From NCBI GenBank assembly GCA_048939465.1, contig JBHLPL010000067.1:1-10413 (forward strand): a stretch of DNA of 10,413 nt, given 5' to 3'. Under the pieces are notes generated by a model. That model was not told the DNA's origin. It made no database searches and saw only the letters and a program-made list of their open reading frames with translations. Made by a program: the position numbers and the translations under genes. The stretch comes from Promethearchaeota archaeon (lineage in GTDB: Archaea > Asgardarchaeota > Odinarchaeia > Odinarchaeales > JBHLKK01). This document shows, one piece after another, positions 3,647 through 10,413 of this stretch. The stretch's first letter is position 1; every line of letters begins with the position of its first letter.

Positions 3647-4750
3647 TTATACTGCTCTGAAATAGTCGCTTATGTATTTCTGCATCTTTTGCTCTTTGGC
3701 AAAGTTTGAGATCTTTACCCCCACTCTCCTTATTTCGAGCTCAGACTCTCTGATGAGCTTGCCAAAAAGCTCTTCAACAGCTGCATTCATAATATCCAGC
3801 TCACTTGCGGGACTTTCAAGGGATTTTGATCTACTAAGTGTGCCTAGATCCTCCATAATCGCAATTACTCCCACGGTCTTGAAGAGCAAAGCTAATTCAA
3901 TAAGCTCTGAGTGGATATCTTTGCTCAGCTTTCTTGTTTCTTCAAGAATAACCTCCAAATCTCGTGTATTCTCCTTAAGGGTGGAAATCCTACTGAGGGA
4001 TTTGACTTGATCTCTTTCTTGAACACGGTCATTGCCTATCCCCAATGAGGCATTCCGAAAATAGGTTCCTAAGTTCCTTCCGAAGATTTTGACTAATCTC
4101 TGTACATCATACTTCGACAGATCACCTATCGTTTTGATTCCAAGCTCTTCCATTTTCCTAACAGTCTTGGACCCAATGCCAATGATGCGACCTACAGGCA
4201 AAGGAGACAGGAATTTCTGGACTCTTTCGGGCTTTACAACGGTCAGTCCGTCAGGTTTTTTTACGTCTGCGGCAATCTTGGCTATGAGCTTATTCGGTCC
4301 AACCCCAATTGAACACGTCAATTTCTCCTGATCTTTTATCGCCTTCTTTACCTTTCTTGCGAGCCTTCTTGCTCTCTCAAAATCTCCTCTGACTTTCCTG
4401 CTTACATCCAGGTAGGCTTCATCTATTCCGACTTGCTCAAAGTGATCTGCGTAGCTCCTAAGAATCTTCATTATTCTCCTCGAGACCTCCCCATAATAAG
4501 CGTGATCTACAGGCAGGAATACCGCTTCTACGTCCTTAAGTTTGGCCTTAGCAGAATATATAGGAATGCCTGACTTAACGCCGTGTTTTCTGGCTATGTA
4601 GTTTGCCGTGCCTACAGCGCCGCTGTCTTCAGTTCGGCCTGAATACACCCCCACAACTACTGGCTTGTCTTTGATGGTTGGGTTCCTGATCTCCTCACAC
4701 TGCGCGTAGAAGTAATCCAAATCCATCAGCATTATTATCTTGGTTTGCAA
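3647..4750 (-). CDS. dinB: Y-family DNA polymerase IV (DinB/Dpo4)
   Basis: Motifs MDLDYFYAQ (Dpo4-like, Tyr steric gate), YIARKHGVKSG, GIDEAYLD, GVGPNKLIAKIAADVKKPDG, HhH GIGSKT, little-finger RRVGVKIS and C-terminal PIP-box QKYISDYF. The start is moved from the ORF-track 4774 to TTG at 4750 because GGAGGTGG (4764-4757) sits 6 nt upstream; product about 367 aa. Confidence 0.95.
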   Translation of the reverse strand: MQTKIIMLMDLDYFYAQCEEIRNPTIKDKPVVVGVYSGRTEDSGAVGTANYIARKHGVKSGIPIYSAKAKLKDVEAVFLPVDHAYYGEVSRRIMKILRSYADHFEQVGIDEAYLDVSRKVRGDFERARRLARKVKKAIKDQEKLTCSIGVGPNKLIAKIAADVKKPDGLTVVKPERVQKFLSPLPVGRIIGIGSKTVRKMEELGIKTIGDLSKYDVQRLVKIFGRNLGTYFRNASLGIGNDRVQERDQVKSLSRISTLKENTRDLEVILEETRKLSKDIHSELIELALLFKTVGVIAIMEDLGTLSRSKSLESPASELDIMNAAVEELFGKLIRESELEIRRVGVKISNFAKEQKMQKYISDYFRAV

Positions 4751-5083: not shown

Positions 5084-7717
5084 CTAAACTTTCACGTAGT
5101 CGGCCATGTAGTAATAATCGAACAGTTTGTCATAGACCCAAACTACAGCTACGCCGTGCACTTTCTTGGGTATTTTAACCCACCCAGTCCAATGATGGAT
5201 GTATATAGATCTGCACCAGATAGGCTCCGAATCGGCGAAGTAGATTATTCTTAACGTATAATATTCACTCCTTCCGAAATAGACGGTATAACCATCGATC
5301 AAGAATGTATAGTCTCCGGGTCCCACGATTGTTGTAACTTCTGGTGAAGCCCCAGTTGCTCCTTCAACGTTATAGCCTTCAGGTCCAACGATGATGAGGT
5401 CCAGATCGCTGGTAGCCCACTTGGTCCAGTCTAGTTTCCACGATAGTTCAACGATGGCCCAGCCAGCCTCATCTGGGATGGTGAAACTATAAATGTCCAG
5501 CTCGCCTTCCTTGATTTTGCCTTTAGCCGTTATGATGGTGCCGGGATAGACGCATACATCGGCCGCTACGCTTTCACAGCCGTAGCTTGAGATGTATAGC
5601 CATCCTCCGTGTGCAAGAGCTCTGACTTCAACAACTTCAATGGTTATCTCCTCGATGGAAACTGGACCATAAGAGGAGAAGTCTCCTGAAAGAACTAGCC
5701 TTACCAATCCGGGTTGGAAGGTAAAATCGGATGATACCTGGATTATCGCATCTCCGTAGAAGTAATAACCGGCAAAAAGGTAGTCCTCAACGCCTTCTCG
5801 GACAGCTGAGCTGAGGTAAACGACTCCTGCGTCGCCAAAGAGTGGATTCTGATTCTCTGAAAACTCAACCCCAGAGAGAGTTATTCGAATGGCGTCAACC
5901 TGATCACTTACCCAGAAGGCGAAATACTCGTACTTGCCAGGATCAAGAGTTACATCTTTGATTGTGGTCTTGCCACACCTCAGTCTGAGTGTCTCAATGG
6001 GCGGATACCACCAGTTAAAGCAGAATCTTCCTGTGCCTCTGCAGTGACAATCGTTGCTATCTTCAGCCATATCCGCGAGAACTGCAAGTGAGTCTTCACA
6101 GTTGAGATAGCCTGATCCTTGCTCAAAGTCGGCAAAGCCTGGGATTGGATCGGCTCCTTCCATGATAGCTTCCTTGATCTCTTTAGGTCCAAGATCCCAA
6201 CCGTTCATCTTAATGTATGCAGTCAGCAGCGCAGCTGCTCCGGCTACCTGGGGACATGAGAATGATGTTCCGCCCGCTAGCCAAAGCGTGTACGGGTAAT
6301 CGGAAGGTATGCTTCCAAAGAAGGTCCAAGATCCCGTGGCAACAACGTCTGGTTTCACTCTACCGTCAGATGTCGGACCACGACTGCTGAAGTCTACAAT
6401 ACCGAATTCTTCGTCTGGATAGTAGAAATACCCATAGCTATAGGGGAATCCATATCCACTGAGGACGATGCTACCAAATACTCGTTCATGGATTGGATCC
6501 ATCGCAGCGCCTACGGTGATTGCACTCTTAGCGGTGCCGGGTGAGCCCACACGTAACGTGGCGGGGCCTTCATTGCCAGCTGCCACAACTACGGTTATAC
6601 CCAGCTCCGTTGCGGCGTCCACGAGTAGATCCTCTGGGGCCATTCCGGGAGCGCCGCAGCCACCGCCGAGACTCATACTGATGACGTCGACCCCCTCGTC
6701 AATTGCAGCATCGATTCCTGCCATCACCATTGACGTGGGAACTCCGCCACCTGTGTGGTCAAAGACCTTAACTGCATAGATTTCAGCGTTGGGGGCTATG
6801 CCCCAGCATTCGACCCATTTTGTGCCTGACACGTTGGTAGATCCTTCAGGGTCCCATTGATATATCGACTCACCCCAAGAATGACCTTCTGGGAAACCAA
6901 TCGCTACATGGGCTGCAATGAGGGCAGCACAGCCTGAGCCATGCCAGTGATTATTGGGATTTCCATACCCCTCGTACGTGGAATTTCCAACATCATAACT
7001 GAGGTCGATCCCGCCGTATACAGCAGGATAGTACCAACTGAGATACCCAACAGGGCCATAATCACCGTCCACTACGCGCATCTCTTCGTCCCAGCAACCT
7101 GTGTCAATAATGGCTATCCTGATTCCTTCTCCGCCGTTAACTTCTGCCCAAATCTGGTCGGCCTTCGTCAAATAGGGATTTGTGTACGTGGAAGGCACAG
7201 CATCCATCATTCTAGTATCGAGCAGGTTAACCTCTATCCCTAGATCTTCAGTCATCAGCCGTTCTAGTGGCATGATCTCTTTGGAGGACATTAGATAACG
7301 TTCAGTGTCCAGGTATATTCTTACAACAAGGGAACTGGCAGCCAAATCAAGGAGTGCGCTTGCAGGAATAGTGACAGCAAGAGCTTCTATGTTATTAAAC
7401 GCATATGTAACGGTTCCTCCGAGGCTTTCGATCAGCGAAGTTAGCTGAGCGTAGTCATGGGTTGTTGTCTGAACAATGACACTGACTGGAGTAGCTCCTT
7501 GCTCTAGGAGGCCTGCTACGCCTGTTGTCAGTTTTTCCAGTGGCGTAGAGGCCGCTACTTGTGTTAAATTCACTTCTGTTTGCAATGATCCCTGACCGTT
7601 GAGACTGCTAAGTACGCCAGAACCAGCCAAAGCAAATGAGGAAAGCATCAGCGTCATTATTACTAGGCTTACAGAGAGCTTTTTGTTCCTTATCAAGCCT
7701 GTGAATAGTATGTTCAC
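5084..7717 (-). CDS. large secreted S8 (subtilisin-like) serine protease, paralog 1, with I9-like propeptide and C-terminal PPC-like beta domains
   Basis: Asp IAIIDTG (7103-7105), His HWHGSGC (6941-6943), oxyanion AAGNEG and Ser GGTSFSCP (6263-6265). It also has a signal peptide, a propeptide (VSVIVQT...ALAVTIP) and a PPC-like SWKLDW...SDLDLIIVGP...GPGDYTFLIDG, with no C-terminal TM. The ORF-track start (GTG 7750) lies inside the leader hairpin; GTG 7717 is preferred because AGAGGGAGA lies 6 nt upstream exactly as for paralog 2. TTG 7696 is an alternative. Confidence 0.93.
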   Translation of the reverse strand: MNILFTGLIRNKKLSVSLVIMTLMLSSFALAGSGVLSSLNGQGSLQTEVNLTQVAASTPLEKLTTGVAGLLEQGATPVSVIVQTTTHDYAQLTSLIESLGGTVTYAFNNIEALAVTIPASALLDLAASSLVVRIYLDTERYLMSSKEIMPLERLMTEDLGIEVNLLDTRMMDAVPSTYTNPYLTKADQIWAEVNGGEGIRIAIIDTGCWDEEMRVVDGDYGPVGYLSWYYPAVYGGIDLSYDVGNSTYEGYGNPNNHWHGSGCAALIAAHVAIGFPEGHSWGESIYQWDPEGSTNVSGTKWVECWGIAPNAEIYAVKVFDHTGGGVPTSMVMAGIDAAIDEGVDVISMSLGGGCGAPGMAPEDLLVDAATELGITVVVAAGNEGPATLRVGSPGTAKSAITVGAAMDPIHERVFGSIVLSGYGFPYSYGYFYYPDEEFGIVDFSSRGPTSDGRVKPDVVATGSWTFFGSIPSDYPYTLWLAGGTSFSCPQVAGAAALLTAYIKMNGWDLGPKEIKEAIMEGADPIPGFADFEQGSGYLNCEDSLAVLADMAEDSNDCHCRGTGRFCFNWWYPPIETLRLRCGKTTIKDVTLDPGKYEYFAFWVSDQVDAIRITLSGVEFSENQNPLFGDAGVVYLSSAVREGVEDYLFAGYYFYGDAIIQVSSDFTFQPGLVRLVLSGDFSSYGPVSIEEITIEVVEVRALAHGGWLYISSYGCESVAADVCVYPGTIITAKGKIKEGELDIYSFTIPDEAGWAIVELSWKLDWTKWATSDLDLIIVGPEGYNVEGATGASPEVTTIVGPGDYTFLIDGYTVYFGRSEYYTLRIIYFADSEPIWCRSIYIHHWTGWVKIPKKVHGVAVVWVYDKLFDYYYMADYVKV

Positions 7718-7723
7718 CTTTTC

Positions 7724-7804
7724 TCTCCCTCTTTTTCCTATTCTTGTCACGTGATAAGACCACGTGCGGCCGTAAATATGGATGCTGGATTTATAAAAGG
7801 TTTA
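7724..7804 (-). promoter_or_regulatory. promoter/leader cassette of subtilase 1 (BRE-TATA, 5' hairpin, purine-rich RBS)
   Basis: TAAACCTTTTATAA (7804-7791), a 23-nt spacer, GCACGTGGTCTTATCACGTGACAA (from 7767) and AGAGGGAGA (7732-7724). Confidence 0.8.
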
Positions 7805-8098
7805 TCATGGTTGAAACAATCAATTACGAAATTAGCAAAACTAGCATATCTCTCATTTTGGAACCCAGATTTTTTTATGAAGGTAGCAAAATCGGTTATT
7901 GCATATCACGAAACTAACAAACCTTATTTATTTCAGCTACTAATGAAAAATGAATATAATACGGAAGGGACTGATGATAATCCCGCCAGTGAGCTTTGTG
8001 AGTCACGGAGGAAAAGGCGGAAAAGAATGAGTAATATGCAATTTCGGTCTTATTATGATTTCTACAAAGGTATTCTGTCTAGGAATTGTCCAATGAAG

Positions 8099-8193
8099 TA
8101 AACCTTTTATAAGACAAACATCAATACCTAAAAGCGCACGCTGAGTTCAGCGTGACAAAATAAAAATTGGGAGAGGAGAATCGGAGAGGGAGA
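8099..8193 (+). promoter_or_regulatory. promoter/leader cassette of subtilase 2 (BRE-TATA, 5' hairpin, purine-rich RBS)
   Basis: TAAACCTTTTATAA (8099-8112), a 23-nt spacer, GCACGCTGAGTTCAGCGTGACAA (from 8136) and AGAGGGAGA (8185-8193), 6 nt before ATG 8200. Confidence 0.8.
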
Positions 8194-8199
8194 CTTAGT

Positions 8200-10413
8200 A
8201 TGAGGAAGACGAAAGTAGGTTTTGCAGTACTTTTGACCATGGTCTTCTTAACTTCAATTGTAGTAATAGCTACACCTGTTTTCGCAGAAGACATTTCTCC
8301 AACGAGTATCTTTATGAGCAAACTGGAACCTGAGTTACTTGCAAAACTTCAAGAGAACCCCAACAGCGTCTTTAGGGTCGTTGTGGTTCTCAATGATGGA
8401 GTTAGCAAGGATGCGGCCCGGAGCTTACTCCTCAGTCTTGGCGGAGAGATCAACGCCGAGCATAACGTCATAAATGCTATCTCGGCATCAATTCCAGGAG
8501 ATAAGCTTCAGTCAGTGACATCGCTTGGAGACGTCAACAAGATTCTAATTGACGGAAAGAAATTCCTAAGTCCTGTTCCGAAAGCAGAAGAAAACAACGA
8601 CGATGATGTAGTAGAAGATGACGTATCTTACTGGTATTCGCAGTTCCCATGGCAGCACGATGCAGATGAAGCGTGGGCTATGGGAATTGATGGTTCTGGA
8701 GTCATTGCAGCGGTACTGGACACAGGTCTTTTCTATGAACACCCAGACCTCGCAGGGGTTGTTCTCGATTATGCAGTTTTCACAAGTGAGGCAGACGTAT
8801 TTCCGCATGATGGCTACGGTCATGGGACCGCGTGTGCAAGCTGCATTGCCGCGCAAGCCATTGTTGACTGGGATCTAGGTGTTACAGACCTGTACTTCAA
8901 GGTCAAGGGAGTTGCCCCGGGGGCAAAAATCCTGGGGGCCAAAGTCCTGACCGATGCGGGTTGGGGCTGGGATTCTTGGATTATTCGAGGTATCGAGTGG
9001 GCAGTATGGTCGGGAGCTGATATAATTAGCTGCTCCTTCGGAGGACTCGAGATTCCAAATGATGGTAATGACCCGACAGCCTTAGCACTGGATGCTGCGG
9101 CAGAAAAGGGAGTTACCAGCTTTGTGGCAGCGGGTAACAGTCAAGGCTTTGGCACAGTAGCTTCACCTGGCTGTGCTAAAGATGTAATAACAGTAGGGGC
9201 TTCTACTGAAAACTCATTTCCATACACTTGGCTTGGTTACTGGCCGTTTGCTTATGCAGATGACTATGAGAATGATCAACTAATCTTCTGGAGCAGCGGA
9301 GGATCAACAGCCGATGGCAGAGTAGACCCTGATGTGTCCGCTGTTGGAGCATGGGGTCTCACGCTTGACACACATCCTTACTATCTATGGCTACAATTTG
9401 GTGGTACGAGCATGGCAACTCCAGTTGCAGCTGGAGTTGGAGCGCTTGTAATCGAAGCTTACAGAGCTGCTCATGGACATTCTCCAGAACCCGGAGAAGT
9501 CAGAAATATTCTAATGAATACAGCAGAGGACCTGGGTTATCCTGCCAATCGTCAAGGAGCCGGTCGAGTAGATGCCTATGAAGCAGTACTGGCTGCCCAG
9601 TGCGACTGCTGTTACTCTGATACAGGCGGAATTCACGCTGGAATCCTAGAGCCTGGTGAGAAATACACAAGTCACCTGAAATTCAAAGAGGATATTGATT
9701 ACGTTTGCGCAGAAAGACTTGAGTGGATTGGTGATATATTCGAAGAAGGTCTGTCGACCCCTGACGATGAATTTCTGTATTTCACAGTTCCTGCTGGTAC
9801 AGAGTATGCACAGATTAAACTGATGTTTCCATTCAACTATTCATTCGGAGTCTACGACATGGAAGATTACGATGGAAGTCAATGGACAGACGCTCACATA
9901 AATACAATACTCTATCGAATTGAAGAAGACGGCAGTTGGACTATGATCAACTACGGGTATGCTCACACAAATATACAATGGTTTGATGCTAGCGTGACTC
10001 CTGGAGATTATGTGTTGTGCATGTCGCACGTAGCAGGTGAACCCATCACACCAGTTGATGTCAAAATAGACTTCTATGAGTTTGCTCCTTGGACCTGGGT
10101 ATCCACACATATCCTTGGAAAGAATCTGAAAGTCAACGTCAAAGTGCCTTGGGGTACTGCTCCAGGATCATACGAAGGCTTTGTCAGAGTAGAGTGTGAC
10201 GGAGACTTCATCAATATTCCAGTTGTCGCTACTGTTCCGGCAAAAACTGGAAAATCATTCACTGTCACAGCGAACGTGGTGATGGAGCCAAGAGACTCCA
10301 TGTCTGGTGACTGGGTTTTCATCCCGGTGAAAGTACGCAAGTATAGGTACATAACACTCACGGTTTCTTGGTTTACACCTGATGCAGACTTCGACGTCTA
10401 CCTAATCACTCCT
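8200..10413 (+). CDS. large secreted S8 (subtilisin-like) serine protease, paralog 2 (3'-truncated by window end; absent from ORF track)
   Basis: Hand translation from ATG 8200 is open for 738 codons to the window end. It gives the signal peptide MRKTKVGFAVLLTMVFLTSIVVIATPVFA, a propeptide (FRVVVVL...INAISASIP), Asp AAVLDTG (8719), His GHGTACAS (8821), oxyanion AAGNS (9136), Ser GGTSMATP (9409), then beta-rich domains and a PPC-like LTVSWFTPDADFDVYLITP. Confidence 0.93.
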   Translation, partial: MRKTKVGFAVLLTMVFLTSIVVIATPVFAEDISPTSIFMSKLEPELLAKLQENPNSVFRVVVVLNDGVSKDAARSLLLSLGGEINAEHNVINAISASIPGDKLQSVTSLGDVNKILIDGKKFLSPVPKAEENNDDDVVEDDVSYWYSQFPWQHDADEAWAMGIDGSGVIAAVLDTGLFYEHPDLAGVVLDYAVFTSEADVFPHDGYGHGTACASCIAAQAIVDWDLGVTDLYFKVKGVAPGAKILGAKVLTDAGWGWDSWIIRGIEWAVWSGADIISCSFGGLEIPNDGNDPTALALDAAAEKGVTSFVAAGNSQGFGTVASPGCAKDVITVGASTENSFPYTWLGYWPFAYADDYENDQLIFWSSGGSTADGRVDPDVSAVGAWGLTLDTHPYYLWLQFGGTSMATPVAAGVGALVIEAYRAAHGHSPEPGEVRNILMNTAEDLGYPANRQGAGRVDAYEAVLAAQCDCCYSDTGGIHAGILEPGEKYTSHLKFKEDIDYVCAERLEWIGDIFEEGLSTPDDEFLYFTVPAGTEYAQIKLMFPFNYSFGVYDMEDYDGSQWTDAHINTILYRIEEDGSWTMINYGYAHTNIQWFDASVTPGDYVLCMSHVAGEPITPVDVKIDFYEFAPWTWVSTHILGKNLKVNVKVPWGTAPGSYEGFVRVECDGDFINIPVVATVPAKTGKSFTVTANVVMEPRDSMSGDWVFIPVKVRKYRYITLTVSWFTPDADFDVYLITP

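Follow-up and report, generated by a model that had tools for sequence, protein, structure and literature searches.

A promoter and 5' leader module shared by two divergent subtilase genes of an Asgard archaeon

The divergent protease genes and their upstream elements

The 1.96-Mb assembly of an uncultured Asgard archaeon (G000 in the comparisons) contains two secreted-protease genes that adjoin one another in divergent orientation. In the window analysed here, a stretch of DNA of 10,413 nucleotides, subtilase 1 occupies positions 5084-7717 on the minus strand and encodes a Peptidase_S8 protein of 877 aa (Pfam, 7.7e-40), the length also given by the database gene call, and subtilase 2 occupies positions 8200-10413 on the plus strand and encodes a second Peptidase_S8 protein (Pfam, 9.6e-49) that is truncated by the contig end. 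Both proteins start with a signal-peptide-like segment, and with 30% identity to each other they are paralogues encoded head-to-head. The start of subtilase 1 lies at GTG 7717 and not at GTG 7750, as the first-pass annotation of this DNA had argued from the symmetry of the two leaders: the orthologue in a syntenic relative (L020) opens ATG-AAC-ATA at the homologous position. A 116-aa open reading frame spanning the intergenic region (7751-8101) was rejected as a gene, as it has no Pfam match and its frame is broken by 29-nt and 1-nt indels relative to L020. DNA of this locus also occurs in sediment and mangrove metagenomes, and none of the data sets listed as containing it is recorded as RNA.

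All of the elements listed in the first-pass annotation are present upstream of both genes and can be read in both leaders. The 14-mer TAAACCTTTTATAA lies at 7791-7804 (minus strand) in leader 1, where it is 13/14 identical in L020, and at 8099-8112 (plus strand) in leader 2, where it is 14/14 identical in L020, in the Logan contig L030 and in G001, a genome of the same genus. The core promoter at both sites reads TAAACC-TTTTATAA, with the AT-rich box of about 8 bp and the A-rich BRE of an archaeal BRE/TATA element, and the AAA of the 14-mer matches a genome-wide pattern, since regions upstream of TTATA have 41-48% A at positions -7 to -4. The exact 14-mer occurs twice in the assembly, both times at this gene pair; our own base-composition estimate gives about 0.05 chance copies per genome.

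A 23-nt spacer separates each TATA box from the predicted transcription start. The spacer of leader 1 (7768-7790, minus strand; 20/23 matches to the L020 orthologue) carries CATCCATA at offset 7-14, and that of leader 2 (8113-8135, plus strand; 13-18/23 matches among orthologues) carries CATCAATA at the same offset. The C-G steps at 7768/7767 and 8135/8136 fit archaeal start geometry, 23-27 nt past the box, and both start sites, G 7767 and G 8136, are predictions from that geometry. The spacers, initially taken as unrelated filler, are identical between the two leaders at 12/23 positions in G000 and at 16/23 in L020 (P from 0.006 to 1e-4); the spacer of leader 1 matches those of leader 2 at 12-16/23 positions (P from 0.007 to <1e-4). 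Because the spacer is homologous between the copies, the stretch from BRE/TATA to hairpin constitutes one contiguous copied block of about 62 nt.

Each predicted start is immediately followed by a predicted stem-loop. In leader 1 (7748-7767, minus strand, within the motif GCACG...CGTGACAAGA at 7767-7742) the stem is formed by 7766-7760 and 7754-7748 around a loop at 7759-7755, and the fold reaches -9.3 kcal/mol, with the centroid identical to the minimum free energy (MFE) structure. In leader 2 (8136-8154, plus strand, within GCACG...CGTGACAAAA at 8136-8160) the stem is formed by 8137-8143 and 8148-8154 around a loop at 8144-8147, and lies within an MFE fold of -13.4 kcal/mol. Outside the hairpin the leaders are predicted to be unstructured. 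Leader 1 continues with ACAA and a purine-rich stretch (7718-7747, minus strand), including 23 consecutive purines (7739-7717) and the Shine-Dalgarno (SD)-like AGAGGGAGA at 7732-7724, 6 nt before GTG 7717. Leader 2 continues with ACAA and an A-rich tract (8155-8199, plus strand) that holds the SD-like GGGAGAGGAG at 8169-8178 and AGAGGGAGA at 8185-8193, 6 nt before ATG 8200; this region is identical to L020 at 40/41 positions.

The presence of AGAGGGAGA 6 nt before both starts thus stands as first described, but its standing as a special shared element does not, GAGGGAGA being generic in the genome. The genome contains AGAGGGAGA 38 times, about 20 other gene starts are preceded by GAGGGAGA, and 21 of 104 occurrences of GAGGGAGA fall 3-10 nt before an open reading frame of >=100 aa (0-1% for the reverse complement). 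With such a distribution GAGGGAGA behaves as a ribosome-binding motif in general use across the genome, and the AGAGGGAGA common to both leaders may simply be a generic SD; a search of the assembly for a 16S rRNA gene found none. The suggestion of matched translation and stoichiometry fares no better, as the start codons are GTG and ATG, the SD-to-start spacing in leader 1 of L020 is 9 nt rather than 6, and the leaders measured from the predicted starts are 50 and 64 nt long.

Nor is the region between the TATA boxes the unrelated filler it had been thought to be. It contains three direct repeats TYAYGAANNTARCAAA (7824-7839, 7875-7890 and 7906-7921, plus strand), candidate transcription-factor sites that have no further match in the genome (0 for a reversed control) and that sit inside blocks conserved in L030 and L020. 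An inverted repeat (7898-7909/8031-8042) was discarded, as it is not conserved in L030.

Specificity and structure of the predicted start-site stem-loop

A profile search of the genome with the cassette recovered these two sites only (E = 4e-28 and 3e-21). The next match (E = 1.8, on C146) and a CACG..CGTGACAA match on C69 bear no resemblance to the cassette. The pattern GCACG-N8-13-CGTGAC likewise has two matches in the assembly, both at this pair. The architecture is not generic in the genome, given that the thermosome genes and a third subtilase gene have other promoters and leaders. No further copies of the module were found in the genus beyond the protease pair; a BLAST search of leader 2 against 400 Asgard genomes returned only G000 and G001, with short chance-level matches otherwise; and the pattern CCTTTTATAA-N22-24-GCACG-N8-13-CGTGAC matched G001 only among 185,579 species genomes and had 0 matches in JGI metagenomes. 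The regulon envisaged at the outset therefore gained no members in any of these collections. The presence of the arrangement in independent assemblies argues against an assembly artefact.

The stem-loop is found in the folds of six leaders (-7.4 to -14.1 kcal/mol), beginning in each at predicted +2, whereas only about 3% of TATA-anchored upstream regions (n = 98) fold at <= -9 kcal/mol at the predicted start. Its stem comprises 7 pairs, and 97.6% of the cells are paired. At two of these pairs both partners vary (CG/UA/UG and GC/UA), with compensatory changes in L020 and G001, and the covariation score of 0.352, which comes from two stem positions in related sequences of four lineages, compares with 0.170 in shuffles and was reached by 0/500 of them. 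G-U pairs are confined to the sense strand. The invariant parts are the four outer stem pairs (the CACG/CGUG base), the flanking G and ACAA. A comparison with Rfam 15 gave no match near the gathering score, the sub-threshold match to mir-184 (19.7 bits vs 54.1, E = 0.13) being attributable to chance.

With moderate confidence, we favor a reading in which the two genes share a genus-specific core promoter followed by a 5'-terminal RNA stem-loop and a purine-rich leader, similar in kind to the leader of Bacillus subtilis aprE, and copied from one protease gene onto the other. The module would consist, in order, of BRE/TATA, the 23-nt spacer, a start at G, the stem-loop from +2, with its invariant CACG/CGUG base, variable top and following ACAA, and an A- or purine-rich leader with an SD of the GAGGGAGA type. 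Transcription of both protease genes would thus start at core promoters that are nearly identical, and both transcripts would have the same RNA hairpin at the 5' end. We infer that this hairpin would act at the RNA level, its structured 5' end and the strongly ribosome-binding polypurine leader together protecting the mRNA from 5'-end-dependent decay, and that the outcome would be high, parallel expression of both proteases. The genome encodes three beta-CASP nucleases, on C138, C77 and C2, so candidate 5'-end-dependent RNases exist.

The main competitor is that the start-site palindrome is a DNA operator, on which a dimeric transcription factor bound to GCACG..CGTGAC would block recruitment of RNA polymerase and co-repress both proteases, for instance until peptides are available, with the three direct repeats as conceivable further sites. 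We consider this possible, if doubtful. Archaeal repressors typically sit over the start site, and blocking RNA polymerase recruitment is the usual mode of archaeal repression; the palindrome overlaps the predicted start in this manner. Its invariant base, flanking G and ACAA, fixed at 23 nt from the TATA box in 7/7 copies, would equally suit sequence-specific DNA recognition, the element occurs at no promoter but these two, and the conserved blocks and unique repeats between them suggest protein-binding sites. GCACG and CGTGAC, however, are separated by 11 nt in leader 1 but by 10 nt in leader 2, and loop length differs as well, which fits RNA better than a dimeric DNA site. The inner positions vary yet remain complementary, something for which a protein half-site has no need, two pairs are of the G-U type and hence mismatched in DNA, and the invariant symmetric part amounts to just 4 bp per arm, in half-sites that are not at fixed spacing. 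A Pfam scan of the open reading frames in the window identified no candidate regulator gene, and only the two protease promoters carry the site, which is not what a regulon would present.

A further reading, which we regard as rather unlikely, would make the stem-loop a dedicated Asgard cis-regulatory RNA element, recognized by a dedicated RNA-binding factor or a nuclease and spread by copying of the promoter-leader cassette. If so, it would serve as a portable expression module, placing secreted hydrolases that the cell has newly acquired under a post-transcriptional control circuit already in operation.

Conservation, age and copying of the module

Both copies of the module are present in L020 and L030. 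In G001, the module lies on subtilase 2 in a different neighborhood, beside S6e, aIF2-gamma and RpoE genes, and both subtilase 1 and the intergenic sequence of G000 are absent; this genome is only 78% complete, so subtilase 1 could also have been lost there. Between G000 and L020, cassette identity is 0.83-1.0, compared with 0.38-0.61 at four-fold sites and 0.64 in the inter-promoter region, and by this measure the cassette is under purifying selection. The strain variants listed from metagenome contigs of four runs lie in the spacer or between the promoters, none of those listed affecting the TATA box or stem. Two-site specificity and cross-species conservation together bear out the original proposal that the protease pair shares a specific, selected promoter-leader architecture.

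The whole cassettes of leader 1 and leader 2 are 76-78% identical, a score reached by 0/1000 shuffles. After the hairpin, leader similarity is no higher than in shuffled controls (equalled in score by 391/2000 and 254/2000 shuffles), so it is uncertain how far the copied block reaches in the 3' direction. Subtilase 2 has orthologues at 72-82% amino acid identity in G001, L020 and L030, and further genomes, from Asgard archaea and Bathyarchaeia, encode orthologues of either protease at 45-63% identity, which lie in other neighborhoods and lack the module. These more distant orthologues have other promoters and no hairpin, the distant homologues of subtilase 1 having unrelated short A-rich leaders; the promoter differs on the homologue contigs P0097 and L041, and a further homologue, P0096, contributes no leader because its N-terminus lies off the contig. 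Divergence between the spacers of leaders 1 and 2 (12-16/23) is similar to that among leader-2 orthologues within the genus (13-18/23).

The absence of the module from distant orthologues indicates that it arose within the genus, far later than the paralogy recorded in the 30% identity of the proteins. On this evidence, the module is of genus age and copied, and not retained from an ancient gene duplication. The direction of copying was probably from subtilase 2 to subtilase 1, because the AATAAAAATTGGGA stretch and purines of leader 2 are common to L032, a subtilase-2 orthologue of 58% identity, and distant subtilase-1 leaders are unrelated. The module would accordingly belong vertically to subtilase 2, and at least the block from BRE to hairpin (~62 nt) would have been copied, in inverted orientation, before subtilase 1, by then its head-to-head neighbor. 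Recent gene conversion between the cassettes was rejected, as spacers group by type across species (20/23 between copies of leader 1, 12-16/23 between leaders 1 and 2).

These findings leave little room for the account given in the first-pass annotation, of four separate cis-elements kept by selection long after duplication, possibly for stoichiometric production. Read as relics of the original tandem-inverted gene duplication, with everything between the elements decayed, the cassettes would be an improbable case. The proteins are indeed paralogous, the genes head-to-head and the elements under purifying selection. Nevertheless, homology runs without a break from BRE/TATA through the spacer, which has not decayed, to the hairpin, and ancient retention is contradicted by the absence of the module from all the more distant orthologues of both genes, by its presence on subtilase 2 alone in G001, and by the differences between the two genes in start codon, SD spacing and leader length. 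It is highly improbable that the inverted repeats are MITE-like terminal repeats with outward promoters, or the bounds of an invertible segment moving the upstream repeats between promoters: a 42-nt inverted repeat (74% identity) does flank a 294-bp segment, but no other copy of any part occurs in the genome, where a MITE or IS would be expected in several copies with both ends retained, only one arm is present in G001, joined to subtilase 2, the orientation of the segment does not differ between G000, L030 and L020, contigs of four runs (which drop rare forms) contain no strand-changing joints or ends, and no recombinase domain was found among the window open reading frames scanned.

Significance and relation to known systems

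Asgard archaea are the closest prokaryotic relatives of eukaryotes, and few have been cultured; to our knowledge, almost nothing is known of their promoters, leaders and mRNA control. We know of no characterization of 5'-end-dependent decay in these archaea, nor of any demonstration there of the mRNA protection by 5' hairpins that has been shown in bacteria. The locus described here offers a comparative-genomics example of a core promoter invariant across species, of a structured 5' leader with covariation, and of regulatory rewiring by cassette duplication, a compact unit having apparently been copied onto a neighboring, anciently diverged paralogue. The conserved upstream repeats are candidate factor-binding sites, and the short, defined sequences are suited to in vitro transcription, RNA-decay and binding assays. 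The reach of the example is two genes in one genus, known from their sequence.

As in a canonical archaeal core promoter, the TTTATAA core is immediately preceded by an A-rich BRE-like stretch, a pyrimidine-purine step follows 24 nt downstream of the box, and the genome-wide upstream pattern agrees. Unlike in a canonical promoter, the exact 14-mer is found in the genome at this pair only and does not vary between species, a conservation that, on these comparisons, is in excess of what a generic core promoter needs. In the Thermococcales, the glycolytic motif (TGM) TATCAC-N5-GTGATA is bound by TrmBL1/Tgr. Like that motif, the element described here is a palindrome just downstream of BRE/TATA, over the start site, and repeated at promoters that would be co-regulated. 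It differs in being limited to two promoters, in its varying arm spacing, in having no known cognate factor and in inner bases whose covariation includes G-U pairs, an indication of RNA.

In Bacillus subtilis, a 5' stem-loop and a strong ribosome binding site in the aprE leader are described as stabilizing the mRNA (Hambraeus et al. 2000, 2002, cited in PMC7509114), and related stabilizers include the 5' hairpin of ompA and polypurine or STAB-SD elements such as that of katG (PMC2358910). The leaders analyzed here have no sequence homology to bacterial leaders of the aprE/ompA type. They operate in an archaeal (Asgard) promoter and translation context, and their shared element is duplicated onto two divergent genes and documented at the level of sequence. 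The likeness to aprE lies in the combination of features: a secreted subtilase gene is preceded by a leader of some 50-65 nt, which carries a stable hairpin at its very (here predicted) 5' end and is elsewhere unstructured and rich in purines, with, in leader 2, another SD-like block at too great a distance from the start codon to serve it, and, in both leaders, a strong SD, GAGGGAGA, 6 nt before the start.

Layout and genomic uniqueness of the paired cassettes

All elements that a first-pass annotation had listed upstream of the divergent protease genes, subtilase 1 (minus strand, start GTG 7717) and subtilase 2 (plus strand, start ATG 8200), were found where it had placed them. In both upstream regions, each read in the sense of its gene, the parts follow in identical order: the BRE/TATA 14-mer TAAACCTTTTATAA, a spacer, exactly 23 nt long in both, in which CATC-N-ATA occupies offset 7-14, directly thereafter a hairpin element (GCACG...CGTGACAA), a purine-rich tract, and AGAGGGAGA 6 nt before the start codon. 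The two encoded proteins are Peptidase_S8 subtilases that share 30% identity, and each has a signal-peptide-like N-terminus. Within the assembly (1.96 Mb, 152 contigs, 43% GC, 91% complete; the window is the entire contig C126), the 14-mer and the pattern GCACG-N8-13-CGTGAC each occur twice, both times at the protease pair, and searching with a cassette-derived profile recovers these two places alone (E 4e-28 and 3e-21; next match, E 1.8). Since all three match this pair alone in the genome, chance does not explain the paired cassettes. The same arrangement is present in independent assemblies.

The concern that the module might be generic applies to some of its parts. The BRE/TATA conforms to the genome's general pattern, and TATA-like motifs peak genome-wide 40-85 nt upstream of SD-led starts, which leaves the two predicted leaders, 50 and 64 nt in length, on the long side but within range. 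Likewise, GAGGGAGA is a general SD-type motif of the genome, with 21 of 104 occurrences lying 3-10 nt before an ORF of at least 100 aa (reverse complement, 0-1%), the third subtilase of the genome among them. The complete module is not a generic feature: thermosome genes, taken as proxies for high expression, present TTTATATAGAAGTT boxes, GAGGTG/GGAGGTG sites and no such hairpin. Promoter sharing between paralogues is nonetheless not unique to the proteases, as two thermosome paralogues (contigs C137, ~13830-13990, and C10, ~3767-3930, of this genome, G000) have a near-identical TATA region (TTTATATAGAAGTT).

Comparison with the syntenic locus L020 of another species (GCA_048886265.1) confirmed the corrected subtilase 1 start, with ATG-AAC-ATA at the place matching GTG-AAC-ATA in the window. 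The dinB gene probably starts near 4749, at a TTG that follows GGAGGTG by ~7 nt, rather than at the ORF-track TTG 4774. Translation signals are not exactly matched, the SD-type motif lying 9 nt from the start in L020 leader 1 and reading AGAGGGGAA in the same-genus genome G001, and the proposed matched translation and stoichiometric production are therefore unsupported.

Conservation and the predicted 5' hairpin

Identity between the window and L020 is 0.38-0.61 at four-fold degenerate sites and 0.64 in the sequence between the promoters, rising to 0.74-0.87 in the spacers, 0.83-0.92 in the hairpins, 0.93-1.0 in the BRE/TATA and 0.98 in leader 2 after the hairpin. Among the strain variants listed from metagenome contigs (64 more lie outside this list), all fall in the spacer and intervening sequence, and none in the TATA box or stem. 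Subtilase 1 (window 5084-7717, L020 4001-6667) evolves much faster than its neighbours, with 59-61% amino acid identity and a four-fold identity of 0.38, against 85% amino acid identity for dinB and a 490-aa ORF; subtilase 2 is at 74-77%.

The region between the promoters also contains conserved blocks. Three direct repeats of TYAYGAANNTARCAAA upstream of promoter 1 (7824-7839, 7875-7890 and 7906-7921), without another match in the genome, are located in blocks conserved in L020 and in the Logan contig L030; they could be transcription-factor sites adding shared transcriptional control. A second conserved island (8015-8044; CGGAAAAGAAT..AG....CAATTTCGG) is invariant in three lineages.

All six complete leaders are predicted to fold into a stem-loop from the predicted +2, with the remainder essentially open. 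In the alignment of the start-site region, the 7-pair stem is 97.6% paired, with double-sided changes at two of its pairs (CG/UA/UG and GC/UA). The covariation score of 0.352 (0.170 in shuffles) was reached by 0 of 500 shuffles, in a small sample of four lineages whose outer four pairs do not vary, and slid controls collapsed. Such stability at the predicted start is uncommon in the genome, ~3% of 98 TATA-anchored upstream regions reaching -9 kcal/mol. The main rival reading is a repressor operator covering the start site. Two stem pairs, however, are G-U on the sense strand, and arm spacing differs by leader type (11 nt in leader 1, 10 nt in leader 2), which points to an RNA element rather than a pair of DNA half-sites.

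Origin and distribution of the module

The cassettes had been read as four separate elements kept long after duplication around unrelated spacers. Demonstrable similarity is instead contiguous, with BRE/TATA, spacer and hairpin forming one homologous block of ~62 nt that opens with the initial T of the 14-mer and closes at the ACAA past the hairpin. Whole cassettes align at 76-78% identity (0/1000 shuffles reach the score), and leader-1 and leader-2 spacers agree at 12-16 of their 23 positions (P 0.007 to below 1e-4), about the same as leader-2 spacers between species (13-18 of 23). Beyond ACAA, similarity is not above shuffled controls, the sequence being too purine-rich. Spacers group by leader type across species, ruling out recent conversion between the two cassettes.

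L020 presents a head-to-head subtilase pair followed by dinB and holds both cassettes, and L030 contains leader 2 together with the initial portion of leader 1. In G001, the module precedes the subtilase-2 orthologue, beside genes for ribosomal protein S6e, aIF2-gamma, a PIN protein and RpoE; subtilase 1 was not found near this locus, and the sequence upstream of the 14-mer has no similarity to the window. A MITE or invertible segment is unlikely: the profile finds just two genomic sites, G001 carries a single arm, joined to subtilase 2, and the segment keeps one orientation in G000, L030 and L020. In G001 (locus L015, 4841-4885), a ~22-nt tandem duplication (..GTAAAGCTTACGCAACAGCTTA.. twice) adjoins the BRE, possibly the scar of a rearrangement putting subtilase 2 beside the S6e/aIF2-gamma cluster. 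Its subtilase 2 (L015 1200-4739) has 1179 aa, versus 1015 aa in L020, with an insertion of ~150 aa following residue ~150.

Distant subtilase-2 orthologues from Atabeyarchaeia and metagenome contigs (58-61% identity) have other TATA boxes, lack the hairpin and retain a purine-rich leader; one of them (L032) has the stretch AATAAAAATTGGGA in common with leader 2. At the Atabeyarchaeia loci L016-L018, the orthologues have a TTG start with a GAGGTG site. A purine block conserved there (AGAAGAGGG(G)AA), close to the predicted start and ~90 nt before the genes, makes the purine-rich leader seem an old trait of the subtilase-2 lineage. Distant subtilase-1 homologues (51-63% identity) lie in other neighbourhoods behind unrelated short A-rich leaders. 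No further cassette copies were found in the genus, 400 Asgard genomes, 185,579 species genomes or JGI metagenomes, leaving the suggested regulon without additional members. Contigs from two mangrove runs resemble leader 1 just in its purine-rich SD portion (7713-7745; 33 nt, 3 differences), are unrelated to it on either side, and may represent a related organism using the same leader on another gene. On one metagenome contig, an L020-like leader-1 cassette (7719-7803) is abutted by unrelated sequence at the upstream edge of its TATA box, reflecting either an alternative subtilase 1 arrangement or a chimeric contig.

Together, the contiguous similarity and its distribution indicate that the shared module has roughly the age of the genus and is far younger than the protein paralogy; a copied cassette explains it best. 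Because leader 2 is vertically rooted in the subtilase-2 lineage, copying likely proceeded from subtilase 2 to subtilase 1.

Possible mode of action

The promoter-leader module common to these neighbouring protease genes is real, selected and lineage-restricted. On the preferred reading, near-identical core promoters would drive both genes, with the 5' end of each mRNA sequestered in a short GC-rich stem ahead of an open, strongly ribosome-binding polypurine leader. Such an arrangement would shield the transcripts from 5'-end-dependent decay. The genome encodes three beta-CASP nucleases, which are candidate 5'-end-dependent RNases. We regard this Asgard archaeal locus as a modest, well-supported case of regulatory rewiring and of a 5' leader predicted to be structured. 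A precedent for such a leader is that of Bacillus subtilis aprE (Hambraeus et al. 2000 and 2002, as cited in PMC7509114).
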